DNA of 64,000 nt from Nitrospinales bacterium (GCA_046757665.1 JBHHYO010000004.1:14395-78394); one strand, 5' to 3'; counted from the stretch's first letter, positions 32,965 to 59,945 are shown. The notes: a model not told the origin generated them from the sequence alone. Program-made: numbers and translations.

Positions 32965-32976
32965 AAAATTCTCCCG

Positions 32977-35451: not shown

Positions 35452-35456
35452 GTGTT

Positions 35457-36718
<1,262 letters not shown>

Positions 36719-36722
<4 letters not shown>

Positions 36723-38388: not shown

Positions 38389-38397
38389 CGTGTGTTC

Positions 38398-38942: not shown

Positions 38943-38946
<4 letters not shown>
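38398..38946 (-). CDS. nuoC: NADH-quinone oxidoreductase subunit C
   Basis: 182 aa. ATGA overlap with the nuoB stop. Motif ERELFDMFG. Confidence 0.9.
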
Positions 38947-39517
<571 letters not shown>

Positions 39518-39527
<10 letters not shown>

Positions 39528-39871: not shown

Positions 39872-39962
39872 ACCGATGACTCCCTAACATTTTTAAAGCC
39901 GTTGCTAACAATCATCATATCAATGTCCCGTCTGAAGGCCAAAAGATAAAGCCAAAACAGGG

Positions 39963-41531: not shown

Positions 41532-41611
41532 AGATATTCACCATTGTTGATCGGAAAACGGCGGGAACGACCCGTCAGGTGGCGGGATTGATCGCAAATG
41601 CCAGCGGGTCG

Positions 41612-41640
41612 ATTCTACTAGAAAATCGCTTGTTTTACAA
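41612..41640 (-). promoter_or_regulatory. Candidate sigma70 promoter for the 442-aa gene (TTGTAA-N17-TAGAAT)
   Basis: On the minus strand the sequence is cTTGTAAaacaagcgattttctagTAGAAT. The -35 overlaps the small palindrome CTTGTaaaACAAG. It lies in the 146-nt gap after the 768-aa gene. Confidence 0.3.
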
Positions 41641-41677
41641 GGGTATGGCGCAAAACCGCGGAAGAACGGCTCACCAT

Positions 41678-43984
41678 TCAACTCAGCCCCAGTTTTCGGC
41701 GAGTCCACCATTCCATGGACAGGAAACCGATGAACATAAAATAAACCCACCAATTATCCCACAAGGAGAGGATTTTACTGTCCGACTTCGTGCGGACTTC
41801 CGGATTGGAGAATCGCTGGTCGGCCAAATTTGTCTGCTCATCCAAAACCCGGAAAGCGCCGCCCGTCGCTTCCGCCATGGTTTTTAAGAGCAAACTATTG
41901 ATGAGGGGCTTTTCAAACTCCGCCGTTTCGCTAAAGACGCTGAACAACGCTTCTTTTTTGAGATCTTCGGCTGCCCGTTTCAACCGGGCGGAATAAAAAC
42001 CCTCTCCCGAAGGAGTAAATTCAAAATTCGCTTCACCCAACGCATTCGTCTGTAACGTATGCTTGGAGAGAGTTTTCCCATTGGAAATGGAATGAAGAAT
42101 CAAGTCGATCTTTTCGTTGGGAAGGGGATTATAATCCTCCCTCAGCATTTTAACTTTGATCAGTACCTTTTCGTTTTCCCTGTACCGTTCCTTGTCGGTT
42201 TCGATTTTAATCTGCTGAGTTTCCGGCTCGTTCGTCATCCAGGCCACCACATTGTTCCAGAAGTTTTGATAGTACCTTCCGCTACCCCCCTGCCCAACCC
42301 GCAGAAAATTCCATGCCCAGGAGGAGTCCGTCGCCAGAATTAGGGAGCGCCCGTCGCCGTTCTTGCGGACCGCCAGGACGGGATAGGCGTCGCCGTGATC
42401 TCCCGTCTTCGTATAACGAATCAAGACCTGAGCATCCTTCGCTGGCTCCAGGCCGATATTCAATCCCCTGAGTTCCGGCATGGAACTCCAGGCCTCATGA
42501 TTCAGTTCCTCGCTTTTTTCCAGACGCAGGATGGGATGGTGGGCAAACTGCTTGCCGATCCGCGGTTTGAAGGCATCGTTTAAAAACTGGCTCGTTTTAC
42601 TTCGGATCCTGACCGGAAGAATATTATCGACCCCCGTCTGGTAATACCCTCCGCCCTGGAAAGAGAGATCGCCTCCAATCATGATGAAAGCGCCGCCATG
42701 ACGCACGTATTTTTCAATATTCTCCAAATACTGCTTTTGAATAAAAGGCTTGTATCGAAAATTTTGAAAGATCACCAGGTCGAATGAACCCAGATAGTCG
42801 CTCAGCAGTAAATTGGATGGAAACGAGATAAGGCTCAGCTCCGAAACCGAGGCCTGCACATCGTCCGAAAAGCTTCTGAGAATAAAAAACGACAACAAGT
42901 CGACTTTGGGGTTATTGATGAGAACTTCCCGAAGAAACCGCGCATCCCAGGAAGGACGCCCATTCAAAAGCAGAACCCGGATGCGGTCGCGGATCACCTT
43001 GACCTGAAATTCCTTGCGATTATTGCTTTCAATGGATTCGCCGACGAACAGCGGCACGGAAAGAGTGTAAACTTTTTTGCCTGTCGTATTGGGAACAAAT
43101 TGCAGATCGGTTTTGTAGCGGCTCTGCCCCTCTTTGATCTCGATAACTTTCGACACCAGAACCTTGTCGCCCTCTTTGAGAACCAGCGGAATATTTTTAT
43201 TGCCCATGGAAGAGGCGATGAGGCTCACGGAGAGATTCACTTCCTGACGAACAAACCCAAAATCGGCTCCCTCCAGTTTTTCGATTCCCAGGTCCTTGAA
43301 ATTTTCATTACTGCCCGCCTGGAAAGTATGGATCGGCGCTTCAAAAAAGGACAGCGTATCCGCCATCTCCTCAGAGACCTCCGCCAAATCCTCCCCCAGG
43401 TCGGCGCCATCGGAAAACAGCATCACCCCCTGAAGCGCTTTTCCTTCATAATGCTTTTTTACTTCCCGCAACACCTGATTCAAATCCGTGTTTAATCCCT
43501 GAACCCGGTATCGACTCTCGATATCCGATCCGGGCACCGCAGTGATCCGATCAGACGCAAAATAAAAATCCACCTGAAAATCTTTTTTCAGGTTCTCAAA
43601 ATAATCCCGGTTTTTCTTCAGTACCCGGCGAACAATGTCGAACCGCGGCTTTTCCTCCGGAAAGGTTTTGATTGCCAGGCTTTTGCTGTCATCCAGCAAC
43701 ACGGCAATGGAATTTTTTTGAATTCGGCTTTTGTTGAATTCGAGCTCGGGTTTGAACAAAATCAGAAGAAGCAGAAGAAAACTGATAACCCGCAGACCAT
43801 AAAGGAAAGCTTTGTTCAAGGGAGACCGGATCCGCCTCAGGCTGGTCCAAAAAAACCATAAAGCCACCGGAACCACAAAAATCGCAAAAACCAAAATCCA
43901 TTCGACTTCACTTGTTCCCCACCGAACTTCCCAATTGTCGAATTCGTCGAATGGCAGACCGAGTAGATCAGCTAGAAAGTTCAC
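41678..43984 (-). CDS. BatA/VWA-like membrane protein (768 aa): N-terminal double TM, VWA-like region, GATase1-like region, C-terminal TM anchor
   Basis: The GTG start overlaps the DUF4159 stop (GTGA). N-terminal TMs: WILVFAIFVVPVALWFFW and AFLYGLRVISFLLLLLILF. MIDAS-like motif: AVLLDDSKS. Family-typical motifs: RVLLLNGRPSWDARFLREVL and GGAFIMIGGDLSFQGGGY. C-terminal anchor: WWVYFMFIGFLSMEWWTRRKLGL. Confidence 0.75.
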   Translation of the reverse strand: MNFLADLLGLPFDEFDNWEVRWGTSEVEWILVFAIFVVPVALWFFWTSLRRIRSPLNKAFLYGLRVISFLLLLLILFKPELEFNKSRIQKNSIAVLLDDSKSLAIKTFPEEKPRFDIVRRVLKKNRDYFENLKKDFQVDFYFASDRITAVPGSDIESRYRVQGLNTDLNQVLREVKKHYEGKALQGVMLFSDGADLGEDLAEVSEEMADTLSFFEAPIHTFQAGSNENFKDLGIEKLEGADFGFVRQEVNLSVSLIASSMGNKNIPLVLKEGDKVLVSKVIEIKEGQSRYKTDLQFVPNTTGKKVYTLSVPLFVGESIESNNRKEFQVKVIRDRIRVLLLNGRPSWDARFLREVLINNPKVDLLSFFILRSFSDDVQASVSELSLISFPSNLLLSDYLGSFDLVIFQNFRYKPFIQKQYLENIEKYVRHGGAFIMIGGDLSFQGGGYYQTGVDNILPVRIRSKTSQFLNDAFKPRIGKQFAHHPILRLEKSEELNHEAWSSMPELRGLNIGLEPAKDAQVLIRYTKTGDHGDAYPVLAVRKNGDGRSLILATDSSWAWNFLRVGQGGSGRYYQNFWNNVVAWMTNEPETQQIKIETDKERYRENEKVLIKVKMLREDYNPLPNEKIDLILHSISNGKTLSKHTLQTNALGEANFEFTPSGEGFYSARLKRAAEDLKKEALFSVFSETAEFEKPLINSLLLKTMAEATGGAFRVLDEQTNLADQRFSNPEVRTKSDSKILSLWDNWWVYFMFIGFLSMEWWTRRKLGLS

Positions 43985-44739
43985 GGTGAATGATATCTCC
44001 GCAACCGGTCCAATATAATGGGCAAATGCACCATATCCTTTTTATAATCCAGGGTGAGGGCATACAGCACAATGTTCACCCCCAACCGAATGCTTGACCT
44101 CCTTTGGATAAGTCCTCCGCCGATCATATCGTAATTCCAATGCCCCAGTTTGTTCCGTGCCCAAGCCCCCTCCAGGTCGTTGGTGGAGTAAAGAAGAACC
44201 GTTCGCCCCTTGAGAGTGATTCCCTCGAGAAACGGACGGGTAACCACGCGGCCGGCAACCCGGTTGACCAAATAAAAAGACCGGAAGATCGAATGATTCC
44301 TGGAAATCCTTTCCAGAGGGGTGTTGGGAAACAGTTGGGAAATCATGTGACGGACCGAATCATCAAACGCGGAATCGACTTTTCCGGAACTGTCGTCGAT
44401 CAGCAAAAACCCTCCATAGCTCAAATAATTCCTCAATATTTTCAGTTCTTCCGGAGAAAAGGGCTCGAAGGCGCTGTCGCCCGACATCAAAATAAACGGC
44501 AATTGAAACAAATGGGGGTCTTTGAGGCTTATATCCACGGCCTCCCGTTTAACTTCCACCGAGGTCCTTCTGGCCGTCTGGGCCAGCAGGCTTTCTACCG
44601 CCTCCGGCCGCGGCTTGTAATTTCCTCCCTGATATTTGAGCTGTGCGATCCGCAACTTGGAAAAATCCCCGATCCCCCAGGCTGAAGAACCGATCAGGCC
44701 GCAACACACACAAATCAAAAACAAAAATTTTTTTCGCAT
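43981..44739 (-). CDS. DUF4159-family protein (exported)
   Basis: Signal-like N-terminus MRKKFLFLICVCCGLIGSSAWG. Family-like motifs: LKYQGGNYKPRPEAVESLL, LPFILMSGDSAFEPFSPEELKILRNYLSYGGFLLIDD. Confidence 0.7.
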   Translation of the reverse strand: MRKKFLFLICVCCGLIGSSAWGIGDFSKLRIAQLKYQGGNYKPRPEAVESLLAQTARRTSVEVKREAVDISLKDPHLFQLPFILMSGDSAFEPFSPEELKILRNYLSYGGFLLIDDSSGKVDSAFDDSVRHMISQLFPNTPLERISRNHSIFRSFYLVNRVAGRVVTRPFLEGITLKGRTVLLYSTNDLEGAWARNKLGHWNYDMIGGGLIQRRSSIRLGVNIVLYALTLDYKKDMVHLPIILDRLRRYHSP

Positions 44740-46064: not shown

Positions 46065-46727
46065 ATGCAACTCTATCAACTAATGAAAGACTACGCCGCC
46101 GCCCACGGTAGCAAACCCGATCCGGACTCGGCCACACCGGAGTTGGGATACAACCTTTCCCTTTTTCATGCCTGTCTGGTAGAAGCCGGGCTGGATCAGG
46201 AAGAGTCCGCCGGCACACAAAAATTGACCGCACCTCCACAGGACATACGCCCTTCCCTTCTGGCCCGGTTCATGGTCGGATTTTTACCCAGCCATTCCAT
46301 AACGGGAAAAAATGAAATCAACAACATTCTGTTTGAACTCTATTCTTTTTTGAAGTGGCTTGATAAAAAAGACATCCAACATGGCTTGGCGAATATCAAC
46401 TTCCAACAATGGATCAAAAAACTTTCGACCGATCAAACCCGGTGCCGGCAACTGAACCGCTTGCTGGATCAGGAAGCCGGACGTATTCTCGACGAACCCC
46501 CACCCATCACCCACACCGTTAGCGACACGTTTTCCGTGGCGAAAATCGAAAAGGAATTCGTTTATTTAAAAGGCGGAAGTTTTTCCGACCCGGTTCGACT
46601 CCGTCTCGCAAACGACATCCTCAAGCTAATCAAACTGAACGACCACCTGGAAATGGTGTTGGGCGACACTTCCAACAAATGGGTTCTTCTGGAGTGCGGC
46701 GAGGTGTTCCCCGGCTTTCAGCGATAA
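46065..46727 (+). CDS. Hypothetical protein (220 aa)
   Basis: ATG lies 25 nt after the transaminase stop. The composition is protein-like and I recognise no motif. The 3' end overlaps the convergent giant gene by 10 nt. Confidence 0.55.
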   Translation: MQLYQLMKDYAAAHGSKPDPDSATPELGYNLSLFHACLVEAGLDQEESAGTQKLTAPPQDIRPSLLARFMVGFLPSHSITGKNEINNILFELYSFLKWLDKKDIQHGLANINFQQWIKKLSTDQTRCRQLNRLLDQEAGRILDEPPPITHTVSDTFSVAKIEKEFVYLKGGSFSDPVRLRLANDILKLIKLNDHLEMVLGDTSNKWVLLECGEVFPGFQR

Positions 46728-49700
46728 TCGCCGGTGAGGTTGAATCCCGCCCAATAAGAAGGATGAGGATAGAGTTTTTTAACCAGTAACTGCGCTTTCC
46801 GCAAACTTTCCGCTTTCTCTTCACGAGCATAAATGCGGTAAAAATGCTTGACCAATATGGCGGTGGAAATGTCGCTCACCCGCCACAAGGAAGAAAGAAT
46901 AGCGTGCGTACCGGCATAAATAAACGCCCGGTTGAGGCCCACCAGTTCATCGCCGCCGACAATCTTTCCCAAACCCGTCTGACAGGCGCTTAACGTCACC
47001 AGGTCGGCATTGACATTGACGGCAAACACCTCGTTCACTTCAAAATTGCCGTCATCGGATTCATCGCGCGTCAGCTTCAACGCAGAGAACAGAGGGTTGA
47101 CCGCATCGAACTCTCCGTGCGAAGCGATATGGATGATCTGGTAATCGTTGATATGCTCCTTGATCCAGCTTTCCCTGGCCTTGTCGCCGGTCAAAAGGTC
47201 GATTTGCGGGAAATCCCATTTTATCGACCTCGCTTCCAGTTCCGCCAACGGCAAATCGTAATTCAAACTCCCCAAATCCGGGTTGCCGACCGCCAGCACC
47301 TTGACGATCTTGCTCTTGTCGAATTTCCTCGCAAAAGTATATTGCAGTACCGAGGCGCTGGGAGAATAAAACAAGGGGTGCTGTTCGACCAGGTATCCCC
47401 CGTCTCCTTTAAGGGAAGCAAAAGAGACGTAATGTAAAATCCCGTTGGGAATCAAGCCGAGGATGCGCGTGCCGCGGATGTGTTCCTCGATGGGCTTTAT
47501 GACCCAGGCATAAAGCCGGGCAGACGTGTCGTCCATCGGCGCCGATTGTTGCATACGTTTTCGATAATCCTTGACCACCCGAGCGAGGTCCTGTTCGCTG
47601 ACCTGGGTACGGGCAACCGCAAGGCCGTCTTTTTTAACTACCCACGCCACCAACTCATCTTTCGTCACAAGGTATTCCACCAGGGCGACGTTTATCTCCA
47701 ACAATCCTTGAAGTTGTTTCAGGCCGATCGATTCCACCGCAATGAAACTTGAAATTTGCGGGCTTTGTTCCTTGGCGTCGATTAGAAAATCCCGGTAACG
47801 GTCACGCTCGGCAACCAGTTGGGCGGAAAGTTGCCGGGTTTTGTCCCCGTCCCCGGACCGGCCAAGAGCCTCTTCCAATTTCCTGATTTTATTTTTTTGA
47901 CGGATCAGGCGGTCATAAAGTTTTTGGCTGACTTCGTTTTTCAAATTGATCTTGTTGTTGCCCAGCAGGTCGATGAAGCTCCGCGATTTGGCGCGTTCCG
48001 CAAAGGAAAAAGACTCCTCGTTTTTTCCCTGGTCGAGGAGCAACAGGATCAGTTCCTTGTAGACATCCTGCTTGTCCGTAAGAAACCCGTTCTGAAACTC
48101 CTCGATTTTGATGGCGGCCCGCATTTTTTCCACGGTATCCACGGCCTTTTTGTAAGCGGCGACGGCTTCGTCCGGCCGACCGGTCTGCGCCAGGCACATC
48201 CCCTGGCCCCGCAAGGCGCGCCAGCGCACCTCGGGAATACCCAGAGCCGCCGCCAGCGTCTCCGTTTTCCGGAAAACAGCAATCGCCGCCGCGCACTGTT
48301 TTCTCTTCAAAGCCAGGTTTCCCAACTCCAGCATGGACTTGACCTCATTGGTCCGGTTGCCGATTGCCCGGCTCAGACCGACCGCCTGCTTGATGTGGTT
48401 TTCCGCCTGATCCAAGCGCCCCATGCGCAGATAACTTATGCCGAGATTGCGATGCGTGTAGCCCTGCCCCCATTTGGATTTGAGACGAATATCCCGTTCC
48501 AGGGCTTTATTGAAAAATTCGATGGCCTTGCCGTACTGCTTGTCCTTGCGATAAATCAATCCGATGTTGTTGAACGCGGTGGCAATATCCAAAAGCGAGT
48601 TGATTTCCCTGGCCAGGTCAAGACTCTTGTGCAACGACCGCAGGGCGCGTTCCGAATCATTCAGCGTCCAGTAAATCAGGCCAAGCGTGTTGTGAATAAA
48701 TGTTTGCTGTCGTTTGTCGCCGATCGCCTCGGCGATCTCCAGGGAGCGTTTTTGCATCCGGAAGGCATTTTGGTAATTCCCCTGGTACCAATAGCTGTTT
48801 CCCTGGTACAGTAGCGATTTTGACAGTCCCAGTTGCAAGTCATGAACCTCGGCCAGGCTCTGCGCCTGCCGATAAAGCGCCAGTGCCCGGTCGAAATCCC
48901 CTTGCTTTTCCGTCACCAATCCCAGCTCCAGTAACGTCTCTGCAATCTGGTCCGTTTGATCCAGTTCCTGAAAAAGCTTGTTGGCCTCGGCAAAATATTT
49001 TCTCGCCTCATCGTAATTGGCGAGCCTTAAATAGTAAATCCGGCCGATCCTTCGCAGTTCGCGTCCCTTGTTTAAATCCTCGCCGATTTCCTCGTTGATT
49101 TTCAGCGAGGCATTAAACGCCTGCAACGCTTTGCCGTAATCCAGTGCATTTTCCTCGACGATACCCAGGGTGCTGTAGCTTTCCGCCAGCCGGTCCAACA
49201 ACTCATATTCCTGATAAATGGACAGGGCTTTTTGCAAAAGCTCCACGGCGCGGGGATACTGTTCCGCCCGCGAATGCAGGATTCCGAGAAAATAAACGGC
49301 CTGCGCCAATTGTTCCGGGTCGTCCGCCTGCTCCGCCAGCCGCACCAGCTCCAACTGATACTTGATCGCGGCCGGGTAATCCTTAAGGTTATAAGCCCCC
49401 AGAGCCAGCGTTTTGTAGATTTCCTGCTGAAATTTTTTCTCCGGGAGAAAACCGATCAGCGACAGGGCTTTTTCAAACGAATTGATGGAACTCTCCCAGC
49501 GTTTTTCGGAAAACGCCTGAAGCCCGTTTGTGACGTTGGCATCGAAATGAGCTTGCGCGAAGATTTGTTTTTCATGTTCCGTCATGCCGGGGAAACCGTA
49601 AAACCGGTACCGCGCCCAGCCGTAGGAGCCGGGATGCCGCCGGGCCAGTTCGACCTGGGCGCGACGAAGAGACTCCGCCGGGTTGCCCTTGCGAAAATCG

Positions 49701-52700
49701 CGGTAGAACAGATCGAGAAACTCCTCCCGGTTGGGAGGATTCCACATCCCCAGCAAAACGCCCGGATACCCCGTAAACGTCAAGCCTTGCAAAAGCAATG
49801 CGGTCGGCGACAACTCGCCGCCACCTTCCAACTTCAATGTGTTGAGGGCAATGAAATTCCCGCCCAGGGTGGTGCGGAAAAGCTCCCTCAAGCTCAACCG
49901 TTCAAAATGGTCTTCGTTGCGCGTCATGCTGATATAGGAATCCTCTGGAACCGCGCTCCTCAGCACAACCGGACTCTCGATATCCAGCACTCCATAATTT
50001 TGCCAATGGGTCCGGAAACGGTCCGACGCCCCCTCGCCGCCGGCAAGGTTTTGCGCCGCGGCAAAGGAGGGGCCGATGCCGGCAAAGGCTTTCTCCGGAA
50101 ACTCCACGGCCAGCAAACGGGAGTTATACAGATTTTTCCTGGCCTGGGAAAAATAATACTGTGAAAACGAAGAGAGAAACGCGATGGGAAGCGCTTCCAC
50201 CAACGGTCTTTGTTTGAAGCTCATTGCCGCCCACGGCAAAAACTCCAGGGGCCCGCCGGCAACAAGATAGAGAAATTTTGCCCGACCCAGCAACTTCTCG
50301 ACCGGCACCACGAACGTATTGGAGAGGTCGGCGATTTCCCGCGGCCCGATTTTGACGGCACCCGACGCCACCCGGGAAAGAAGTTTCAAAATTCCGGGAT
50401 CGCAGACGAATTTTCCGCCTCGGACTGACGAGCGGTCGATTGCCCAAATCAGAATCCGGTCATTGATCTTTTGATATTTCAAGACCAGGTCGCCCGGCCG
50501 CAACAAGGCCTGCATGGCCTGGGCATCCGGAACTTCCGGATAAAACAAGGAAGCCAGTTCCCGGTCATCCTCCCGCACAAGAGACACGAACTCCGCGTAC
50601 TCATCCAAAAGCGCCTGCAACCCATCCTCATCCAATTTCGGCTGGCCCTCCGACATTCCGTCAACCGCCTCTTTGATTTGGGCGGCAAGACTTTCAAGCT
50701 CCGCATAATAATCCTGTCGGGTCTCGTCCTGGAATTGCCGGGTTTTCAACGGCGGAGCCTGGCGCAGAGCGATCAAACTCCATTGCAGGCCCTTCTCGGA
50801 AAAATACATGGCCTCACGGTATTTCCGCCGGTCGAACATCTCACGGGTCAGTACCTGATAAAGCTCCGTCAACATGGCCCGGGAACTGGCATCGGCGGGC
50901 AACAGTCCATAAGGCAGGCGGGACAACTGCTTTTCCGCTTGCAAAAGCAAAGCCAACCGCTCGTCTCCATCCTTCTCCAGGGATTGCAGAAACTCAAACT
51001 GCCACCGGTACGGAAGGGGCTCGCGATTGCCGCTGGAAACTTTTTTATTGTTTTTGGACTTGCCGGGTTTCCGAGCCAAGGAGTTGGCCACCAAAAGGTT
51101 TTGCCGCAACGCCGCTTCCAGTTTGTCCTTTTCAGGACCCGGAGCCAGGTTCCCGGCCGCCGACAACGCCTGCTCAAAAAAACGCGCCGACTTTTTGCCG
51201 AACTTGTCGAATCCCTTGAAATAGAGATCCGATTCTTTTCGCAATTCCTTATAGGCGGCGAGAAAAGCTTCCACCGGCGGCCGGCCGGTTGTTTGTTTTC
51301 CACCAACCGCGGCTTGCCCGCCTTGCGAAAGCCGCGCCAGGTATTGATAAAAAATCCCCAGATAATTTCGCAGATAAACACCGTATTCCGGGTTGGGGAA
51401 GTTTCGGAACTTTTCCATTCGGGTCACTGCGTCCTCAAGCAGTTTAACGGTATTCTGGATTTCATCGCGCAACGGGCCAATGGGACGGGACTGGAGTTTG
51501 GCAAGGAGAACCCGGCCCATATTGGCGGCGTTCACCACGATCCCGCGCCGATTCCGCAATTGCCGGCTCGCGTCATAGGACAACCGGAAATAGCGCAGGC
51601 TGAAGTCGTAGTCGCCTTTTCGATAAGAAAAATTTCCGATCTGATTTTGTATCAGGGCCTTTTCCAGGAGAGCGGCGACATCTTTTTCGGGATCGAGATT
51701 ATCGGCGACTAAGTCGAGTTTCTTTTGGAAATAATCGACCGCCTTCCCATATTCCTTGAAATCGCCATAAATTTTTCCGATGTAGTGAAACGCCATTTTT
51801 TTCTCGCCCACCTCATCGAATCCGGAGGCGGCGGTGGAGGCGTTTTCACCCAACGGGGTTTCGACCTGAACATTAATCAGTCCATCCCCGGACTTTTTGT
51901 CCTTGCCGATCACGCCGAATTTCTCAAGGTTTTCCACCGCCCGGAAGTAATTGGCAAGCGCGTGGCTCATCGCCCTGGCATCCTCTCCGCCCTCCTGCCG
52001 GCTCAACCAGAACAGATTGTTGGCAATGTTCCGCATGGCCCGGGTCATGGACTTGTAATTGCCGGTTTTGCGGTGCAGGTCCATCGCCGCCGTAAAATGT
52101 TCCACGGCCCCGGCGTACTTTCTCTGATCCTGATAGGCCAGGGCGATGCGGTCGTTGAGCTCGGCCATCCGTTTCAATTCCTTGTTTGCCGAAACGATTT
52201 CCAACGCCTTTTGCAGTTGGCGCACAGCGGCGACAGAGTTTCCGGCCTTAAAAGCGCTTTCGCCGAACCGCTGATAAAAAACGGCGGCCCGTCTGGGATC
52301 GGCAAAGGCCAACTGCACTGCCGCCCTTTGTTTGTAATAGTGATAGGCGGTGGAAAAGTTTTTCAGCAGGTAATTGCCGTTACCCAGATTCAACAAAAGA
52401 TTGGCCTCGTTTTCCGGGTTCCGGTCCTCGTCGTTGAGCGCCAGGGCCGTTTGGTATTCCTGAAGAGCCCGTTCCAGATAATCCTCTTTTTTTTGCAGAG
52501 TTTCTTTTTGCTCAAACACCCAGCCGAGAGTCTGATGGAAATAAACATCCTGGGAATTGACCGACAACGCCTGGCCGATCTCTTTTTCCGCCTCATCCAG
52601 GCCGGGCGGATTCAGGTACGTGTAGGCCAGGCCCAGGGCGTAATGATCCGCCGCCGAGCCGCCGTTTTTTCCCAAACGGCTTTTATAAAATCGAATGGCA

Positions 52701-54808
52701 TCGTCGATCTTCCCCAGCGCCGCGCCGGCCTGCACGTAGCCCCGGTGCGCCTCTATGGTTTCGGGGCTGAAAGCGATCAGTTTGAGGAAACTTTTCAACG
52801 CCAGCTTGGTCTCCCCCACCTTGAGTTCCCATTTGCCTTTTTCAATGGATTTGCGAATATACCCGGCGCGGGCTTTTTGCCGGCTCGCTTTTAACTCCTC
52901 CGATTCCCCGGCGGCGGCAATCTCCTGGTAGTAGGACAGAGACTTTTCAAAGTTTTCTTCCTCGGAGTAAATGTTGGCGAGCGCAAACTGGGCCTTGAAT
53001 TTTTCGGAAACCACATCCGGAAAACGCTTGATGGTTTGTTGATAGGCTTCCTTGGCCAGGAGGTTTTCGCTGGCCCGGTAATATAATTCTCCGATGCGGT
53101 TTTGCAGAGCCGCGGCCAACGCAGGCGCTTTCTCGTATTTCACGGAAAGAGCTCGCAGTTCGGACACCTTGTCCTCCAGGACAGGTTGTTTTTCAAACAA
53201 GGCGAATATTTCCCGGATAGCCTTTTGCCGCCAAACCTCAACGTCGTAGTAATCCCGAACAACCCGCACAAAAGCCAGAACCAGATTGTCGTGGTCCCCG
53301 ACCGTGGTATAAATTTTACTTTGGGACCAGGCCGCCTCCGCGGCGATATTCCGCTGTCGGGGATATTCGGCGATAACCTTTTTGTAAAAATTCAAAGCCC
53401 GGTTCAACTCCTCCAGTTCAAAACTCACGTTGCCCATTTCCAGATAGGCGCGGGCGGCAACGCCGGGTTCTTCATGGCCTGTCAGAGTTTCAAGAGGTTT
53501 CAGGATTTTCCGGATTTCCCGCCGGTAAACCGATTTCCCCGATTTTTTTGATTTCGCCGCCTGCAACAGCAACAGATCAATCTCCGCGAGACCCCGGTAA
53601 AGCGGATCGCCGGGCGCTTCCTTCAACAAAGCGTTGAAAATCTTTTCCGCGAAATTAGAGTGCCCCATCCGCAGATGCCCTTGCGCCAGCCGGTAATGAG
53701 CGCGGGCGATCCCCTCCTCGCCGCTGAAATTTTCGACCAGATTGGTATACGCCAACAAACAACGGTAGGAAACGGTTTGAAGGCCGGGGCACAAAGCCTC
53801 GGTCTTTTTCAGGGCGGCGGCATAATCGCCGGGCAGGGGAAACAATCCTTGGGCGGGAAGCTCCCAGATGTCGCTATTGGTTTTTCGGTCGGAAGTGAAA
53901 ATAAGTTTCCCGCGAGCGCTCGCAGGGAAAAGATCGTACGTGGAGCTGTCGGTCAATTGCCGCAATTTCCCCGCTCCATTCACCCATTCCAAACTCCAGA
54001 TATTGGCGCGGTCCTCGATCGTCAGCCGCCCATCCCCATTGGTGTCATCCCGGTAACGGACAAAATAAATCCGTTTTCCGTCCACGGACCAGGCGGGAGA
54101 GACATCGATATCATCACCCCGCGTGACTTGCGCGAGGCCACTGCCTTGCAAATCCTGAACCCACAACGAACCGCTGGGGTCGTCTTTTTTGGAGACAAAA
54201 GCCAGATAGCGGCCGTCCGGCGAAACCGCCCCGTTGAAACCCTCCATGGGCGATACCGGAGTTTTGGACTTGCCCTTAACGCCGATTTTGTAAATCTTCT
54301 TGAAATTGCCATTTGCGGCGAGTGAGGAGAAAAAAACGAATTTCCCGTCTGCCGACCATGCCGGATCGCTTTCGGAGGACCCGGCGCCGGTCAGGCGGAC
54401 GGTTTCCGGCTCCCCGTCGGTTGCCTGGCCATCCAGCCGGAGCAGGTACAAGTCGCCCTTGGCGTCGGAGCGATGCGAAATAAACGCCACCCACTTGCCG
54501 TCCGGACTCAAGGTGGGGGTGGTGTCGGCGGCGCTGTGAAACGTCAATCGCCGGTCGGGCGCACCGGGTCCCGGCCCCAGGCGTTTCCACCACAAGTCAA
54601 GGTTGCCCGACCGGTCGGAAACGTAAACCATGAACGAACCGTCTCCGGCAACCGCCGGAGCAAAATCCTCGCCGGGGTTGGTGGTGAGTTGAACCGGACG
54701 GTTGAACCCATCCTCCGCCCAGATATCGCCCGCCAAAGGGCCGGATAGAGCCAGCGGCGCCAGGACGATCACCATCAATAACCACATGCGTTTGCCTGCA
54801 ACCTTCAT
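46718..54808 (-). CDS. Giant multidomain protein (about 2,696 aa from ATG 54808): signal peptide, PD40/TolB-like beta-propeller, TPR array, degenerate CHAT-like domain, TPR array, CHAT peptidase domain
   Basis: A single uninterrupted ORF. The track start is TTG 54853; ATG 54808 gives MKVAGKRMWLLMVIVLAPLALSGPLAGDIWA. PD40 repeats include SPDGKWVAFISHRSD, SADGKFVFFSS, SPDGRYLAFVS and SVDGKRIYFV. There are dozens of TPR-like helices. The C-terminal CHAT dyad is IIHIASHGEF / LVTLSACQTG. Confidence 0.85.
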   Translation of the reverse strand: MKVAGKRMWLLMVIVLAPLALSGPLAGDIWAEDGFNRPVQLTTNPGEDFAPAVAGDGSFMVYVSDRSGNLDLWWKRLGPGPGAPDRRLTFHSAADTTPTLSPDGKWVAFISHRSDAKGDLYLLRLDGQATDGEPETVRLTGAGSSESDPAWSADGKFVFFSSLAANGNFKKIYKIGVKGKSKTPVSPMEGFNGAVSPDGRYLAFVSKKDDPSGSLWVQDLQGSGLAQVTRGDDIDVSPAWSVDGKRIYFVRYRDDTNGDGRLTIEDRANIWSLEWVNGAGKLRQLTDSSTYDLFPASARGKLIFTSDRKTNSDIWELPAQGLFPLPGDYAAALKKTEALCPGLQTVSYRCLLAYTNLVENFSGEEGIARAHYRLAQGHLRMGHSNFAEKIFNALLKEAPGDPLYRGLAEIDLLLLQAAKSKKSGKSVYRREIRKILKPLETLTGHEEPGVAARAYLEMGNVSFELEELNRALNFYKKVIAEYPRQRNIAAEAAWSQSKIYTTVGDHDNLVLAFVRVVRDYYDVEVWRQKAIREIFALFEKQPVLEDKVSELRALSVKYEKAPALAAALQNRIGELYYRASENLLAKEAYQQTIKRFPDVVSEKFKAQFALANIYSEEENFEKSLSYYQEIAAAGESEELKASRQKARAGYIRKSIEKGKWELKVGETKLALKSFLKLIAFSPETIEAHRGYVQAGAALGKIDDAIRFYKSRLGKNGGSAADHYALGLAYTYLNPPGLDEAEKEIGQALSVNSQDVYFHQTLGWVFEQKETLQKKEDYLERALQEYQTALALNDEDRNPENEANLLLNLGNGNYLLKNFSTAYHYYKQRAAVQLAFADPRRAAVFYQRFGESAFKAGNSVAAVRQLQKALEIVSANKELKRMAELNDRIALAYQDQRKYAGAVEHFTAAMDLHRKTGNYKSMTRAMRNIANNLFWLSRQEGGEDARAMSHALANYFRAVENLEKFGVIGKDKKSGDGLINVQVETPLGENASTAASGFDEVGEKKMAFHYIGKIYGDFKEYGKAVDYFQKKLDLVADNLDPEKDVAALLEKALIQNQIGNFSYRKGDYDFSLRYFRLSYDASRQLRNRRGIVVNAANMGRVLLAKLQSRPIGPLRDEIQNTVKLLEDAVTRMEKFRNFPNPEYGVYLRNYLGIFYQYLARLSQGGQAAVGGKQTTGRPPVEAFLAAYKELRKESDLYFKGFDKFGKKSARFFEQALSAAGNLAPGPEKDKLEAALRQNLLVANSLARKPGKSKNNKKVSSGNREPLPYRWQFEFLQSLEKDGDERLALLLQAEKQLSRLPYGLLPADASSRAMLTELYQVLTREMFDRRKYREAMYFSEKGLQWSLIALRQAPPLKTRQFQDETRQDYYAELESLAAQIKEAVDGMSEGQPKLDEDGLQALLDEYAEFVSLVREDDRELASLFYPEVPDAQAMQALLRPGDLVLKYQKINDRILIWAIDRSSVRGGKFVCDPGILKLLSRVASGAVKIGPREIADLSNTFVVPVEKLLGRAKFLYLVAGGPLEFLPWAAMSFKQRPLVEALPIAFLSSFSQYYFSQARKNLYNSRLLAVEFPEKAFAGIGPSFAAAQNLAGGEGASDRFRTHWQNYGVLDIESPVVLRSAVPEDSYISMTRNEDHFERLSLRELFRTTLGGNFIALNTLKLEGGGELSPTALLLQGLTFTGYPGVLLGMWNPPNREEFLDLFYRDFRKGNPAESLRRAQVELARRHPGSYGWARYRFYGFPGMTEHEKQIFAQAHFDANVTNGLQAFSEKRWESSINSFEKALSLIGFLPEKKFQQEIYKTLALGAYNLKDYPAAIKYQLELVRLAEQADDPEQLAQAVYFLGILHSRAEQYPRAVELLQKALSIYQEYELLDRLAESYSTLGIVEENALDYGKALQAFNASLKINEEIGEDLNKGRELRRIGRIYYLRLANYDEARKYFAEANKLFQELDQTDQIAETLLELGLVTEKQGDFDRALALYRQAQSLAEVHDLQLGLSKSLLYQGNSYWYQGNYQNAFRMQKRSLEIAEAIGDKRQQTFIHNTLGLIYWTLNDSERALRSLHKSLDLAREINSLLDIATAFNNIGLIYRKDKQYGKAIEFFNKALERDIRLKSKWGQGYTHRNLGISYLRMGRLDQAENHIKQAVGLSRAIGNRTNEVKSMLELGNLALKRKQCAAAIAVFRKTETLAAALGIPEVRWRALRGQGMCLAQTGRPDEAVAAYKKAVDTVEKMRAAIKIEEFQNGFLTDKQDVYKELILLLLDQGKNEESFSFAERAKSRSFIDLLGNNKINLKNEVSQKLYDRLIRQKNKIRKLEEALGRSGDGDKTRQLSAQLVAERDRYRDFLIDAKEQSPQISSFIAVESIGLKQLQGLLEINVALVEYLVTKDELVAWVVKKDGLAVARTQVSEQDLARVVKDYRKRMQQSAPMDDTSARLYAWVIKPIEEHIRGTRILGLIPNGILHYVSFASLKGDGGYLVEQHPLFYSPSASVLQYTFARKFDKSKIVKVLAVGNPDLGSLNYDLPLAELEARSIKWDFPQIDLLTGDKARESWIKEHINDYQIIHIASHGEFDAVNPLFSALKLTRDESDDGNFEVNEVFAVNVNADLVTLSACQTGLGKIVGGDELVGLNRAFIYAGTHAILSSLWRVSDISTAILVKHFYRIYAREEKAESLRKAQLLVKKLYPHPSYWAGFNLTGDYR
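46721..47690 (-). other. C-terminal CHAT (caspase-like) peptidase domain with an intact dyad
   Basis: The His codon is at 47117-47119 (IASHGEF) and the Cys codon at 46982-46984 (LSACQTG). The C-terminal motif is AFIYAGTHAILSSLWRVSD. Confidence 0.75.
49583..50500 (-). other. Internal CHAT-like domain lacking the catalytic His/Cys (track residues about 1452-1757)
   Basis: It aligns by eye to the C-terminal CHAT domain. QNYGVLDIESPVVL aligns with NDYQIIHIASHGEF, giving His->Pro at 49970-49972. GNFIALNTLKLEGG aligns with ADLVTLSACQTGLG, giving Cys->Leu at 49835-49837. The spacing is 45 residues in both copies. Confidence 0.65.
53855..54700 (-). other. PD40 (TolB-like) beta-propeller region of the giant protein (track residues about 52-333)
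   Basis: At least six repeats of the form (S/D)P-x-x-S-x-DG-k-x-i-x-F-x-S, each followed by (D/N)-(L/I)-(W/Y). Confidence 0.7.
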
Positions 54809-54913
54809 GGGCAGTCGAGTCCAACAAGAGGAAAACGGTTTTATGCTATTCAATATTATACCTTAATCTCCAGGGCGAAAAGCGCCGCCCGGAAATCCTG
54901 CTTCAACATTTCC

Positions 54914-55012: not shown

Positions 55013-56539
55013 ATGAAAGCTTTCATCCATTTTGAGGACATGAACTGGATTGCGCTGGTGCCGGAGATCATTATTCTTCTCACGGCGTTGTCCATTTTAT
55101 TGTTGGGGTTGAGGAAAACGTTCGACTCCAACGGGTTTCTGTCCAAAGCGGCGTTGATCGGAATTGGCACGGCGCTACCGGCGTCGATTTACTTGTGGAG
55201 CATCGCGCCTCATGCAGGCATGGACGCCGACCCGGGAATTTTCAGCCAGGCATTGATCAATGATCGTTTTTCGCAAAGTTTCAATGTCATTTTCCTGTTC
55301 ATGGCTCTGTTTCCCATATCCAGCGCCATCCGTTATCCCAAACCCGACCATGAAAACAAACCGGAATATTTCGCACTGGTTTTAATGGCGGTGGCGGGAA
55401 TGATGTTTCTCGCCAAGGCGGGAAACATGATCACCGCTTTCGTCGCCCTGGAATTGTTTTCTTTCGCGCTTTACATTTTGTGCGGATTTTCCGCCAAGCA
55501 CGGCACGGGACTGGAAGGACCAAGCGACGACGTCCCACTGGCCTGGGAATGCAGGATTTCCCAGGAATCCACCGTAAAATATTTGCTGACCGGCGCTTTT
55601 GCTTCCGCAATACTGGTTTACGGGATGGCCCTGATTTATGCGGGAACCGGGACTACTGAGATCCGTCTTCTCGGCCAGTTGTTGCGGGAAAACTCATACA
55701 GTAGCAACATTCTGGTGTATATCGGCATGGCGCTGTTGTTTTCCGGTCTCGCTTTCAAAGTGTCGCTGGTTCCCTTCCATGCCTGGACGCCGGACGTCTA
55801 TCACGGCGCGCCCACATCGATCACGGGTTTCATGTCGGTTGCCACCAAGGCCGCGGCGTTCGCCTTCATGGTCCGGGTGTTTTTCATCTCCTTGCCGGAA
55901 ATTCATGAAGTCTGGACGCCCTTTCTTTTCGGCATCTCGGTCATCACCATGCTCGCAGGCAATACCGCGGCGATCTTTCAAGACAATATGAAGCGTATGT
56001 TGGCTTATTCCGGAGTGGCGCACGCCGGGTATTTTTTAATCGGCATCGTAACCAACACGCAGGAGGGCGTGGCCGGTATCCTGTTTTACCTGGGCGTTTA
56101 CCTGTTCATGAACGTCGGCGCATTCGCCGTCGTCTACATCATGGAAGGGGAAGGTGAGGAAGCAAACTCTATTTACCGCTTTAAGGGGCTGGCCAAACGC
56201 AAACCCTTGCTCGCCGCCACCATGAGCTTGTTCATGGTATCCCTGGCCGGATTCCCCCCCACCGCCGGCTTTTTCGGAAAATTTTACCTTTTTGTTTCCG
56301 CCATTAAACAGGGATACGTCCTCATCACCATATTGGCGGTCATCGCCAGCATGATCGCCGTTTACTTTTATCTGCGCGTTATCGTGATGATGTATTTCCA
56401 GGACGAAGCGGGGTCAGAAACCATCAGCATCAACGGCGGCATGGGGGCGCTGGTCGCCGTAAGCTCTCTCGCAATCATTCTCATCGGGTTTTTCCCTTCC
56501 ATGCTCATGCAAATGGCGCTCGATTCCATTCCCTTTTAG
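55013..56539 (+). CDS. nuoN: NADH-quinone oxidoreductase subunit N, detached from nuoA-M
   Basis: 508 aa polytopic protein. Motifs LVPFHAWTPDVYHGAPTSITGFMSVATKAAAFAFMVRVF and KRMLAYSGVAHAGY are typical of NuoN/ND2. An alternative start at 55040 (MNWIALVPEI) is possible. Confidence 0.88.
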   Translation: MKAFIHFEDMNWIALVPEIIILLTALSILLLGLRKTFDSNGFLSKAALIGIGTALPASIYLWSIAPHAGMDADPGIFSQALINDRFSQSFNVIFLFMALFPISSAIRYPKPDHENKPEYFALVLMAVAGMMFLAKAGNMITAFVALELFSFALYILCGFSAKHGTGLEGPSDDVPLAWECRISQESTVKYLLTGAFASAILVYGMALIYAGTGTTEIRLLGQLLRENSYSSNILVYIGMALLFSGLAFKVSLVPFHAWTPDVYHGAPTSITGFMSVATKAAAFAFMVRVFFISLPEIHEVWTPFLFGISVITMLAGNTAAIFQDNMKRMLAYSGVAHAGYFLIGIVTNTQEGVAGILFYLGVYLFMNVGAFAVVYIMEGEGEEANSIYRFKGLAKRKPLLAATMSLFMVSLAGFPPTAGFFGKFYLFVSAIKQGYVLITILAVIASMIAVYFYLRVIVMMYFQDEAGSETISINGGMGALVAVSSLAIILIGFFPSMLMQMALDSIPF

Positions 56540-57675: not shown

Positions 57676-58848
57676 ATGAAGGCGAAAACAAATAGGTTCA
57701 TTATTTTCCTGTTTTTTAACGTCAATAAAGAACAAAAATTGAGAAGAGATTCTACCACAAAAAAACCGTTAAAATTTCCCGGCCTTCCGGAAACTTACTG
57801 GTGGGAACAGCTGGAATCGATTTTTCAACAGGCCGTCACAGACTTAAAAATCACCCCTCTGCCGGGCGATGCGTCAACACGCAGGTATTTTCGTTTGACG
57901 TTCCGGGAAAAATCCCGGGAAAAGAAAAAGCTCGCCGTCATCCTCATGTGGCTGGAAAAGCCGGAGCGCGAAAAAGAACCCGATTTTGCGCGGCTGGCAA
58001 AATTCCTGCGCGGTCTGGGCGTGCCGGCGCCGGAGGTGTTTCATCATGACGCCGAAAGAGGGTTCCTGTTTCTGGAAGATTTCGGCGATACTCTCTTTCT
58101 CGACCTGGTCGGCCCGGATCGAAGCCCGGACGACAGGAAAGCCTGGTACCGCCGGGCAGTGACCCTTCTCGCCGAGATGCAAGTCCGCGCCACCCGGCAA
58201 ATCGGCCCCGATTGCCCCGCATTCCATTTGCGGTTCGACGTCGACAAATTGATGTGGGAATTCGATTTCATGCTGACTCATTACGTAGAAGGCCTGCAAA
58301 AACGCTCCCTGTCGCCGCGGGACCTGGCGGAAATTCGCGGAGCTTTTCGGCCTGTTTGCGAGACCCTTGCCGCGCAAAGCCTCTGTTTCACCCACCGGGA
58401 TTTCCATAGTCGAAACCTGATGGTGCAAAACGACCAGCTTAAAATTCTCGATTTCCAGGATGCGCGGATGGGCCCCTGCCAGTACGACCTGGTTTCTCTA
58501 CTGAAAGATTCTTATGTCCACGTGGACGACGATCTGGTTCGGGAAATGACGGAATTGTTCATTCAACTTAAGGAAAACGCCGAGGGCCAAAAAATGAACC
58601 GCCAAAACTTTTTCCATATCTTCGACCTGATGGCCGTGCAAAGAAATTTAAAAGCCGTCGGCACGTTCGCGTTCCAAAAGATGCACCATGGAACCGGGCG
58701 TTACCTCTCCTATATTCCCGATACGCTCGGTTACGTGCGGCAGACCCTGAGCCGCCATCCGGAACTTGCGCTCTTTCGAGATACTCTGGCAAAATATATA
58801 CCCGAGGTGCACCCCCTGTTTCCTGACAAAATATCCAACGACTCATGA
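57676..58848 (+). CDS. amgK: Aminoglycoside-phosphotransferase-fold kinase, AmgK (MurNAc/GlcNAc anomeric kinase)-like
   Basis: Motifs PLPGDASTRRYFRL, catalytic loop HRDFHSRNLMV, and ILDFQDARMGPCQYDLVSLLKD. The first ~20 codons are AT-rich, so the true start may be TTG 57739. Confidence 0.75.
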   Translation: MKAKTNRFIIFLFFNVNKEQKLRRDSTTKKPLKFPGLPETYWWEQLESIFQQAVTDLKITPLPGDASTRRYFRLTFREKSREKKKLAVILMWLEKPEREKEPDFARLAKFLRGLGVPAPEVFHHDAERGFLFLEDFGDTLFLDLVGPDRSPDDRKAWYRRAVTLLAEMQVRATRQIGPDCPAFHLRFDVDKLMWEFDFMLTHYVEGLQKRSLSPRDLAEIRGAFRPVCETLAAQSLCFTHRDFHSRNLMVQNDQLKILDFQDARMGPCQYDLVSLLKDSYVHVDDDLVREMTELFIQLKENAEGQKMNRQNFFHIFDLMAVQRNLKAVGTFAFQKMHHGTGRYLSYIPDTLGYVRQTLSRHPELALFRDTLAKYIPEVHPLFPDKISNDS

Positions 58849-59945
58849 AACTGCTGAAACGCTACGTTTTAAAAAAATTTATTCAGGTCTATTTGCTGAC
58901 GGCGGGCGCCATGATCGGCGTTTTTTTGATCGTGGACTTTTTCGAGCAAGTGGATGAGTTTCTGGTCAGAAATTCGCCGTGGACGGACCTGGCCGCTTTC
59001 TATTTGTACAAAATCCCCTTCATCATTTTTTTCATCGCTCCGCAGGCGGTGCTTCTGGCTACGGTGATTACCATGGTTTCGTTTGCCCGGAACAACGAGT
59101 TCACGGCCATGAAAGCCTGCGGCATCGGCGTTACCGGGATCACCATGCCGATCATCGCGGCATCGGTAGCCATCGCCATCATCGTCATCGGCATCAACGA
59201 ATACATCGCTCCGAAAACCAATAAGGAGATGAATTATATTTTCTTCGTAAAGGTCCGGGGAAAACAACCCGCGGGCGCAATCCAGAGAGACAAAATCTGG
59301 TACCGGTCGCCCAACAACTGGATTTGGAACATCAATTATTACGATCCGGGCCGGTCCCTGATGAAAAAAGTCAGTATTTTTGTTCCGGATAAAGGCCCTT
59401 TCGTCAAACAGCGCATCGACGCCGCCGCGGCGCTGTGGAACGGCAAGGAATGGGAATTTCTGGATGGATTTGTCCGCCGGTTCGACCACAACAGCGTGGT
59501 CGAAACAAGCTATTTCAACAAACGAACCTTCCCGATCCCGGAAACCCCCGCGGACTTCAACAAAACCCGTAAACAGCCGGAAGAGATGTCGCTGACGGAG
59601 ATGTATCAGAATATCCTCGAGCTGGCCTCGCAGGGCAAAGACACCGCCCGCCAATGGGTCGATCTGCACCACAAGATTTCCTATCCCTTTGTCAGCGTGG
59701 TGATGGCGTTGATAGGAATTCCTCTCTCCATACGGACCAGCCGGACGGGCGGCCTGCTGTTCTGCGTCGGCATCAGCCTGGCGCTGGGTTTTGCGTTTTC
59801 CTTCCTTTACGCAATGGGCATTTCCCTGGGCCACGGGGGCACGTTCAGCCCCCTGCTGGCCAGTTGGGGGACCAACTGCATTTTCGCGTTTGCGGGATTT
59901 TATTTGCTTTTAACTTTGGACAGCGACCGGATGCTCCCCATTTAG
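58845..59945 (+). CDS. LPS export ABC permease, LptF/LptG (YjgP/YjgQ) family
   Basis: ATGA overlap with the kinase gene. N-terminus MKLLKRYVLKKFIQVYLLTAGAMIGVFLIVDF. It has 6 TM helices with a periplasmic beta-jellyroll insert. Confidence 0.85.
   Translation: MKLLKRYVLKKFIQVYLLTAGAMIGVFLIVDFFEQVDEFLVRNSPWTDLAAFYLYKIPFIIFFIAPQAVLLATVITMVSFARNNEFTAMKACGIGVTGITMPIIAASVAIAIIVIGINEYIAPKTNKEMNYIFFVKVRGKQPAGAIQRDKIWYRSPNNWIWNINYYDPGRSLMKKVSIFVPDKGPFVKQRIDAAAALWNGKEWEFLDGFVRRFDHNSVVETSYFNKRTFPIPETPADFNKTRKQPEEMSLTEMYQNILELASQGKDTARQWVDLHHKISYPFVSVVMALIGIPLSIRTSRTGGLLFCVGISLALGFAFSFLYAMGISLGHGGTFSPLLASWGTNCIFAFAGFYLLLTLDSDRMLPI

Follow-up and report, generated by a model that had tools for sequence, protein, structure and literature searches.

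A giant, probably exported TPR-CHAT protein of Nitrospinota with one apparently dead and one apparently live CHAT domain

To our knowledge, bacterial CHAT (caspase-like) proteases are understood almost only as cytoplasmic effectors of conflict systems, DdvA being the single periplasmic exception. DdvA is an anti-sigma factor of Myxococcus xanthus and a structurally solved periplasmic TPR-CHAT protein (PDB 8ROT; PMC11506125). In Escherichia coli, the ydbH-ynbE-ydbL operon codes for an intermembrane bridge of the AsmA-like type that has been implicated in moving phospholipids; YdbL adjusts how the YdbH-YnbE bridge assembles, and unbound YdbL is removed by the periplasmic protease DegP (PMC11126948, PMC13464000). 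Regulators of AsmA-like bridges are still being worked out, and a recent E. coli study reports that YdbL is under proteolytic control (PMC13464000). Here we analyze a gene for a protein of likely 2,696 amino acids (aa), hereafter the giant protein, in a 64-kb stretch of DNA from a Nitrospinales bacterium (GCA_046757665.1, JBHHYO010000004.1:14395-78394; 64,000 nucleotides, called the window, to which coordinates refer). A sequence-only reading of the window had proposed that the protein belongs to an undescribed envelope-located system, on the premise that known TPR-CHAT proteins are cytoplasmic. The periplasmic TPR-CHAT region of DdvA contradicts that premise (PMC11506125). The proposal itself stands in part, in that the protein is very probably exported and its family was not found in the literature, but a periplasmic TPR-CHAT protein has a precedent in DdvA. 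The reading that we favor, with modest confidence, is that of a giant extracytoplasmic scaffold-protease in which a propeller and TPR arrays would serve for docking and a single live CHAT domain for cleavage, probably in envelope homeostasis.

The reading frame is uninterrupted over 46718..54853 on the minus strand and comprises 2,711 codons when counted from a TTG at 54853, in line with the giant open reading frame (ORF) of ~2,700 aa reported earlier. Translation probably begins at the ATG at 54808, which yields 2,696 aa and the N-terminus MKVAGKR; this start is favored because it provides a canonical charged n-region and because an 87%-identical orthologue from an independent European Nucleotide Archive assembly (P0002) begins at the equivalent Met. 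The public record (P0001; 100% identical; 2,689 aa; 'MAG: CHAT domain-containing protein [Nitrospinales bacterium]', MAG denoting a metagenome-assembled genome) uses the next Met and is seven residues shorter. More than 100 colinear orthologues, 2,550–2,900 aa at full length, come from independent assemblies, so a frameshift or chimeric join, which the sequence-only reading had named as a possible undoing, is excluded for practical purposes. The order of parts is signal peptide, propeller, an extra TPR array, and two TPR-CHAT modules, A and B; a scan of the giant protein found no Pfam or NCBIfam family that covers this architecture at full length. Long antisense ORFs within the gene (e.g., 50471..51712, plus strand) were set aside as mechanical by-products of a long ORF, and a promoter and terminator scan of the gene region returned counts at or below shuffle expectation. 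The features of the gene, all on the minus strand, are as follows.

46718..54808, minus strand: whole gene, 2,696 codons and a stop codon (46718-46720); counted mechanically, the ORF reaches TTG 54853
54716..54808, minus strand: predicted Sec signal peptide, aa 1–31, MKVAGKRMWLLMVIVLAPLALSGPLAGDIWA, then ED (read from the sequence; family-wide conservation)
53804..54703, minus strand: six-bladed PD40 beta-propeller, aa ~36–335 (Pfam, AlphaFold2 model, Foldseek)
52481..53773, minus strand: first TPR-like helical array, aa 346–776, outside the duplicated module (Pfam TPR_19/TPR_6/TPR_14; boundaries by hhalign)
50612..52480, minus strand: module A TPR array and helical linker, aa 777–1399 (Pfam SNAP and TPR; hhalign)
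49574..50611, minus strand: module A predicted pseudo-CHAT, aa 1400–1745 (Pfam CHAT, 44.2 bits; hhalign against the second CHAT region)
49970-49972, minus strand: codon of P1613, His-equivalent (hhalign-aligned dyad position)
49835-49837, minus strand: codon of L1658, Cys-equivalent (hhalign-aligned dyad position)
47792..49573, minus strand: module B TPR_12-type array and long helices (coiled-coil-like stretch), aa 1746–2339 (Pfam TPR_12 and others)
46721..47791, minus strand: module B active-type CHAT with N-terminal beta subdomain, aa 2340–2696 (Pfam CHAT, 192.5 bits)
47117..47119, minus strand: codon of predicted catalytic His2564, motif ASHG (codon checked; invariant in 118/118)
46982..46984, minus strand: codon of predicted catalytic Cys2609, motif LSACQTG (codon checked; invariant in 118/118)

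Pfam CHAT (PF12770) matches the protein twice above its cut-off of 24 bits, over aa 2428–2694 with 192.5 bits and over aa ~1495–1737 with 44.2 bits (E 2.2e-11). The C-terminal copy carries the motifs HIASH(2564)G and LSAC(2609)QTG. His2564 and Cys2609 are invariant in 118 of 118 relatives, down to 26% overall identity, as are S2607, L2613, P2572, L2573, and S2575 around the dyad, and G2565 (113/118) and G2612 (117/118) are nearly so; the region is the best conserved stretch of the protein among these relatives. Because dyad and motif residues are invariant, we read the second CHAT as a maintained active site, and the intact His/Cys dyad described for it earlier is borne out. In the internal copy, the aligned dyad positions are P1613 and L1658, and across the family the two columns hold P, R, or K (His-equivalent) and V, L, or I (Cys-equivalent). 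Residue counts over the 118 relatives show no His at the former column and no Cys at the latter; within three columns of these positions, His occurs in 24/118 and Cys in 1/118. Since the His/Cys pair is replaced here and missing family-wide, the first CHAT is predicted to be catalytically dead, that is, a pseudoprotease, and by profile comparison (see below) a true paralogue of the second. The domain called 'CHAT-like' by the sequence-only reading is thus genuine CHAT by descent (44.2 bits; hhalign E 6.4e-46), with its dyad lost throughout the family. Profile matches place the protein in the CHAT/clan CD fold, the His-Cys dyad being present in the C-terminal copy and absent from the internal one. 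A phmmer search of PDB sequences with the second CHAT region gave no match, so that a family profile was needed to reach Csx29 (8d9f_A, E 3.4e-5) and DdvA (8rot_B, E 0.006).

The two CHAT domains are part of a larger repeat. Profile–profile comparison with hhalign, using sub-alignments of the 118 relatives, aligned aa 777–1739 with aa 1770–2694 (probability 100%, E 5e-72) and, for the CHAT regions, aa 1400–1745 with aa 2340–2696 (probability 100%, E 6.4e-46), which indicates that the whole TPR-CHAT module is internally duplicated. Pfam finds many TPR families over aa ~370–1250 and ~1760–2230. In an AlphaFold2 (AF2) model of aa 1497–2696, the TPR region of module B has a predicted local distance difference test score (pLDDT) of ~90, and the best Foldseek matches of the model are LGN-type TPRs in a list dominated by generic TPR proteins.

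Upstream of the repeats, Pfam PD40 matches six times within aa 39–~330 (142.5 bits for the isolated segment), and an AF2 model of aa 1–345 is a propeller with a pLDDT of 88.9 and a predicted template modeling score (pTM) of 0.85. The best PDB match of this model is TolB (2hqs_A; E 5e-16, template modeling score (TM) 0.60, root-mean-square deviation 3.8 Å); the number of blades, six, derives from the six Pfam repeats and the TolB match and was not counted on the model. The PD40/TolB-like propeller proposed from the sequence therefore holds, as does the Pfam similarity to PD40 and to CHAT (142.5 bits; 44.2 and 192.5 bits) expected on that basis.

The N-terminus has the n/h/c layout of a Sec signal peptide (K2, K6, and R7; WLLMVIVLAPLAL; IWA followed by ED), with a hydrophobic core of 13 residues and the I-W-A/E-D site five residues ahead of the first conserved propeller residue. 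A strict rule that requires net positive charge ahead of a 10-residue stretch with a Kyte-Doolittle mean of 2.0 or more is passed by 95/118 relatives versus 9/40 other ORFs of the window; the relatives that fail it are mostly 5'-truncated gene calls or borderline cases. In nearly all relatives a hydrophobic N-terminus and an A-x-A-like site stand directly before the first conserved propeller residue, and in 11 distant members a lipobox (L-A-G-C type, e.g., LLLAGC, GLAACP) replaces the type I site. Cysteine makes up 0.22% of the protein (family median 0.22%) versus 1.03% in other window ORFs, and all carrier phyla seen are diderm. The Sec-type signal peptide claimed at the outset is thus present in layout and shared by most relatives. 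We infer that the giant protein is likely exported, because the signal-peptide-like N-termini are conserved, lipoboxes occur, cysteine is scarce, the first domain has a TolB-type fold, and the operon partners in other phyla (see below) belong to the envelope.

Scanning one genome for each GTDB species with a sequence pattern gave at least 600 candidate stretches, of which at least 581 were confirmed as relatives, in as many species-level genomes. The architecture therefore appears to be that of a widespread, conserved family and not an oddity of one locus. The best 80 loci of these at least 581 relatives come from Nitrospinota, Desulfobacterota (among them Desulfonema magnum 4be13 and strain NaphS2, both cultured), Magnetococcales, Nitrospirota, Sumerlaeota, Planctomycetota, and unclassified MAGs, and members from KSB1 turned up in a protein search. 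The pseudo-CHAT region matched 139 of the 50%-identity representatives at E ≤ 1e-10, in many cases at residues ~1,300–1,850 of proteins of 2,500–2,900 aa. Source names of the relatives are all generic ('CHAT domain-containing protein'), and a literature search combining CHAT with periplasm, AsmA, PD40, signal peptide, or Nitrospina did not find the family described. These data are consistent with an uncharacterized, widespread, and probably periplasmic family of caspase-like proteases.

Outside Nitrospinota, the gene commonly lies in an operon-like setting. Among 40 full-length non-Nitrospinota loci with at least 800 bp of upstream sequence, a gene for a lipoprotein of ~195 aa lies immediately upstream on the same strand in 32, often overlapping the start of the giant gene by a few bases. 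The lipoprotein carries a DUF1318 domain (PF07027, 35 bits), and its family profile matches the solved structure of the chaperone-like E. coli protein YdbL (PDB 28oj_A, E 0.0026). In 28 loci the DUF1318 gene is itself preceded by a gene for an AsmA-like protein of 1,100–1,450 aa whose only membrane anchor is N-terminal; some of these proteins form a subgroup that matches the AsmA (PF05170), DUF748, and YhdP N-terminal models, and the other subgroup is homologous to it (hhalign 99.9%, E 4.5e-37). Downstream, among 44 loci with at least 1.8 kb of sequence, an SH3_3 gene is found in 14 and a gene for a ~310-aa M48 metalloprotease, closest to BepA and LoiP, in 15. The recurrent AsmA-like/YdbL-like operon would appear to be the strongest functional clue available, and it lends independent support to a periplasmic location. 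The informative partners (AsmA-like, YdbL/DUF1318, SH3, and BepA/LoiP-type M48) thus lie in other phyla and not among the unknown neighbors in the window, to which the sequence-only reading had looked.

One Magnetococcales MAG (L003, 1..4361) has a cluster of M48, a split AsmA-like pair (481 and 612 aa), and DUF1318 genes 5.6 kb upstream of the giant gene, with genes for a methyl-accepting chemotaxis protein and a hybrid histidine kinase in between and Fic-domain and Sel1-repeat genes directly downstream.

From these observations a mechanism can be proposed. The giant protein would be exported by the Sec pathway with removal of its signal peptide, or carry a lipid anchor instead in some distant relatives, and would work in the periplasm of a diderm cell. 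The TolB/S9-type propeller and ~1,900 residues of TPR solenoid may dock partner or substrate proteins, and the C-terminal CHAT (His2564/Cys2609) would be the only catalytic center, making caspase-like, site-specific cuts in bound envelope proteins. Domain content, dyad status, duplication, conservation, N-terminal signals, and gene order are observed here, whereas proteolytic activity and the nature of the substrates are what we infer. The dead CHAT may have been retained, as in separase, for binding or regulation. The protein would be a vertically inherited housekeeping component and not a mobile defense gene. In most non-Nitrospinota carriers the gene is probably co-transcribed with its partner genes, often with overlapping start and stop. 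Since most of these carriers have an operon with YdbL-type lipoprotein, AsmA-like, and often BepA/LoiP-type M48 genes, the likeliest field of action would be outer-membrane or envelope homeostasis, possibly including control of AsmA-like bridge assembly. A conserved, housekeeping-looking exported family with one dead and one live CHAT would extend this enzyme class to envelope biology, and the operon with an AsmA-like protein and a YdbL-type lipoprotein offers a concrete, testable lead.

Several points weigh against this reading. The family of the giant protein is known from sequence alone, and the signal-peptide calls combine a heuristic rule with conservation. The AF2 model of aa 1497–2696, built from a 12-sequence alignment, has a pLDDT below 50 in the core of the second CHAT and a pTM of 0.57, so that cooperation between pseudoprotease and protease is a proposal to which this low-confidence model lends no structural support. 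Adjacency of genes names no substrate, and 8 of the 40 non-Nitrospinota loci are without the partner genes. Searches with our own hidden Markov models found no DUF1318, AsmA-like, SH3, or M48 partner in the 64-kb window or in 35 Nitrospinota loci; the long-form DUF1318 gene of Nitrospinota is unlinked to the giant gene and adjoins a fabF-like ketoacyl synthase gene. A lipid-bridge link in Nitrospinota would thus be without support from synteny, and because the partners are unlinked there, the connection to the envelope operon may not apply to this organism.

The most specific form of the proposal, which we regard as doubtful, is that the protein is a periplasmic caspase-like protease-scaffold controlling the assembly or turnover of AsmA-like bridges, for example by cleaving the YdbL-type lipoprotein or a bridge protein, and that it does so in trans in Nitrospinota. 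A dedicated protease could then fill the YdbL-controlling role that DegP has in E. coli (PMC13464000), and lipid homeostasis of the outer membrane in non-model diderm phyla would turn out to include a phylogenetically widespread component that had gone unrecognized.

In the window, the gene is surrounded by the following features.

27111..39900, minus strand: nuoA-M
40203..44739, minus strand: genes for DUF4159 (252 aa, signal peptide), a 768-aa GATase1_like/MG2-like protein (N-terminal transmembrane helices), and a 442-aa DUF5919-like membrane protein
46065..46727, plus strand: convergent 220-aa ORF, overlapping the last 10 nucleotides of the giant gene
55013..56539, plus strand: nuoN-like gene (PF00361), divergent from the giant gene
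57676..59945, plus strand: APH-family phosphotransferase, then LptF/LptG lipopolysaccharide-export permease, with a 4-nucleotide overlap

Beyond the 220-aa ORF, the order is a class-V aminotransferase, DUF4159, the 768-aa GATase1_like membrane protein, DUF5919-like, and nuoA-M; beyond the nuoN-like gene lie an EngB-type GTPase, an APH-family kinase, and an LptF/LptG permease. The Nitrospinota arrangement, identical at 46–57% protein identity, is a nuoN-like gene divergent from the giant gene, the convergent 220-aa ORF, aminotransferase, DUF4159, GATase1_like, DUF5919-like, and nuoA-F. This order is kept in NPINA01 and Candidatus Nitrohelix vancouverensis (46–56% protein identity) and in most of the 35 Nitrospinota loci, the intervening block being seen in the same order in L001, L002, and other Nitrospinota. 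Homologues of the 220-aa ORF occupy the same position in 14 Nitrospinota loci (cluster 12); the ORF is without a signal peptide and has no Pfam or PADLOC match. The DUF4159/GATase1_like/DUF5919-like trio is found in 17–19 Nitrospinota loci and presumably resembles the envelope operons of the Bat/aerotolerance type. Both the ORF and the trio were rejected as parts of a system, being restricted to Nitrospinota and without PADLOC matches. The Nitrospinota synteny is the pattern of a vertically inherited core gene and names no partner. The earlier suggestion that the protein works with the adjacent unknown genes accordingly found no backing, as these neighbors have conserved counterparts in Nitrospinota alone and show no connection to the protein. 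The giant protein is among the largest of these marine nitrite oxidizers and is syntenically fixed in them.

Further observations concern the surroundings. The NADH dehydrogenase genes are split, the nuoN-like gene lying ~15 kb from nuoA-M on the opposite strand, and the APH and LptF/LptG envelope genes are 3 kb upstream of the giant gene, a position conserved in Nitrospinota (cluster 2). A protein of ~411 aa is encoded 100–190 bp upstream on the same strand in ten loci (L010 8588..9898, L012 8665..9900, L019 8596..9831, and seven more); as a candidate for a general partner this gene (cluster 19) was rejected, since it is confined to the genus Nitrospina and has neither a signal peptide nor a Pfam match. 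In L087 (5335..7199) and L088 (5409..7276) a fabF-like gene is directly followed by a gene for a long-form DUF1318 (YdbL-family) lipoprotein, which has a lipid-metabolism neighbor there and not an AsmA-like one. The window also encodes a second large, exported-looking TPR protein (272..2515, plus strand; 747 aa), positionally unrelated to the giant gene, with at least 13 canonical TPR_1 repeats and an N-terminus with a hydrophobic segment and a possible lipobox (LITAC).

The gene neighborhood bears on a first rival to the scaffold-protease reading, namely that the protein is a periplasmic sensor-protease of a conflict or defense system, its TPR arrays and propeller sensing a phage or competitor protein that enters the periplasm and its CHAT then cleaving a host effector. 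It is in conflict systems that CHAT proteases are chiefly known, Csx29 and DdvA have the nearest solved sequences, and DdvA shows that a periplasmic TPR-CHAT protein can serve phage defense (PMC11506125). The only matches in PADLOC-DB v2 are a generic TPR match and a weak one to BovA (E 2.5e-5), with none for four neighbors. Against a defense role, the protein is without a transmembrane or cytoplasmic segment for signaling, and its surroundings contain no gene for a sigma factor, Cas protein, NTPase, or effector. There are no genes for Cas7-11/gRAMP, Csx30/31, or other Cas proteins among its neighbors and no CRISPR-like short-spaced direct repeats in the 64 kb; the absence of cas genes, a CRISPR array, and an NTPase gene noted from the sequence is confirmed, the neighbors being housekeeping genes. 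The housekeeping synteny is fixed in all Nitrospinota loci examined and divergence tracks taxonomy, unlike in mobile defense islands, and the partner genes in other phyla are of envelope-biogenesis types. The NCBIfam Csx29 model, moreover, gives 39.1 bits against a cut-off of 300. We consider a defense function improbable.

We likewise give little credence to a nutritional or degradative, exopeptidase-type machine in which, on the model of tricorn and S9 peptidases, the propeller would admit unfolded peptides to the protease and the protein would do no more than degrade periplasmic or extracellular peptides. S9 peptidase propellers are the next PDB matches of the aa 1–345 model and score almost as well as TolB, and precomputed Tricorn_N, Tricorn_2nd, and DPPIV_N matches exist in orthologues. 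Yet ~2,000 residues of TPR and dead CHAT separate the propeller from the live CHAT, a distance that makes direct gating geometrically implausible. The CHAT, separase, and Craspase enzymes described so far act as endoproteases with site specificity, and the operon context is one of envelope assembly, not of peptide uptake.

TPR lipoproteins and TolB act as adaptors without catalysis (e.g., TolB, NlpI). By this precedent, the protein might be a purely structural periplasmic scaffold, a TolB/TPR-like adaptor in which the second CHAT only binds, like the first; one CHAT copy is, after all, already predicted to be non-catalytic. The invariance of H2564, C2609, and the motif residues in 118 sequences down to 26% identity argues against such a loss of catalysis and makes this explanation unlikely in our view. 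A cytoplasmic TPR-CHAT protein whose N-terminus imitates a signal peptide, or an annotation or assembly artefact, is more improbable still: the NCBI gene call does start at the second Met, dropping the charged n-region, and the signal-peptide calls are of the heuristic kind described, but the hydrophobic N-terminus and A-x-A-like site are conserved, some relatives have lipoboxes, cysteine is low, the first domain has a TolB-type fold, the partners include a co-transcribed lipoprotein and periplasmic proteins, and more than 100 colinear orthologues exclude a chimera.

How, then, does the giant protein, read as an envelope scaffold-protease, compare with systems already described? DdvA, the only characterized extracytoplasmic TPR-CHAT protein, shares with it a TPR solenoid leading into a CHAT domain with a His-Cys dyad and, as predicted for the giant protein, a place in the periplasm; profile comparison (8rot_B, E 0.006) and Foldseek (8rot_A, E 1.2e-9) both reach it from the giant protein. 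DdvA has, however, a cytoplasmic zinc anti-sigma domain, a transmembrane helix, and a partner extracytoplasmic function (ECF) sigma factor, and it regulates a CBASS/CRISPR island; it contains one TPR-CHAT unit in ~1,000 aa and no propeller, whereas the giant protein combines a PD40 propeller with two TPR-CHAT modules. The latter starts with a 31-aa signal peptide and continues with the propeller from ~aa 36, in place of a DdvA-type N-terminus, and no ECF sigma gene occurs among the flanking genes of the window or of L001–L006. Among solved structures, Csx29 (8d9f_A) is nearest in sequence to the live CHAT, and it shares the order of TPR and CHAT and the His/Cys dyad; unlike the giant protein, it is cytoplasmic, has ~700 aa, and is bound to Cas7-11/gRAMP.

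Separase resembles the giant protein in having a long helical-repeat N-terminal region, then a pseudoprotease, then an active caspase-like domain. The aa 1497–2696 model aligns with human separase (7nj1_A) over ~1,200 columns in Foldseek (E 1e-10), with a TM of 0.25–0.29 and a model of medium confidence. The pseudo and active domains of separase lie next to each other, whereas those of the giant protein are ~600 residues apart and appear to derive from duplication of the TPR-CHAT module; separase is also cytoplasmic or nuclear and under securin regulation. Peptidase_C50 (PF03568) has no match in the window protein, precomputed matches being present only in two distant relatives.

TolB is periplasmic and has a six-bladed PD40 propeller, the best structural match of aa 1–345. 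Its N-terminal alpha/beta (TolA-binding) domain is missing from the giant protein, in which there is no room for it between signal peptide and propeller, and the propeller amounts to 12% of the giant protein, unlike in TolB. The NCBIfam TolB model (TIGR02800) gives 106.8 bits against a cut-off of 343.15, and no tol or pal genes are near the giant gene. Similarity to tricorn and S9 peptidases is of the propeller type only (DPPIV_N, Tricorn_N), with no S9 or S41 catalytic domain found.

The likeness to YdbH-YnbE-YdbL is one of gene order only: most non-Nitrospinota giant genes lie in an AsmA-like/YdbL-family operon, an arrangement absent from this window, and no YnbE-like gene was seen. E. coli has no counterpart of the giant protein, and its YdbL is a soluble protein of 108 aa versus the long-form partner lipoprotein of ~195 aa. 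BepA and NlpI-Prc follow an analogous logic, TPR surfaces bringing envelope proteins to a periplasmic protease; this is analogy and not homology, as those are metallo- and serine proteases of very different size and the giant protein is a predicted clan CD cysteine protease. By its profile matches and domain order, the giant protein would be neither a Csx29/Craspase component nor a DdvA-type anti-sigma factor, neither TolB proper nor a separase, but a further member of the CHAT/clan CD fold family.

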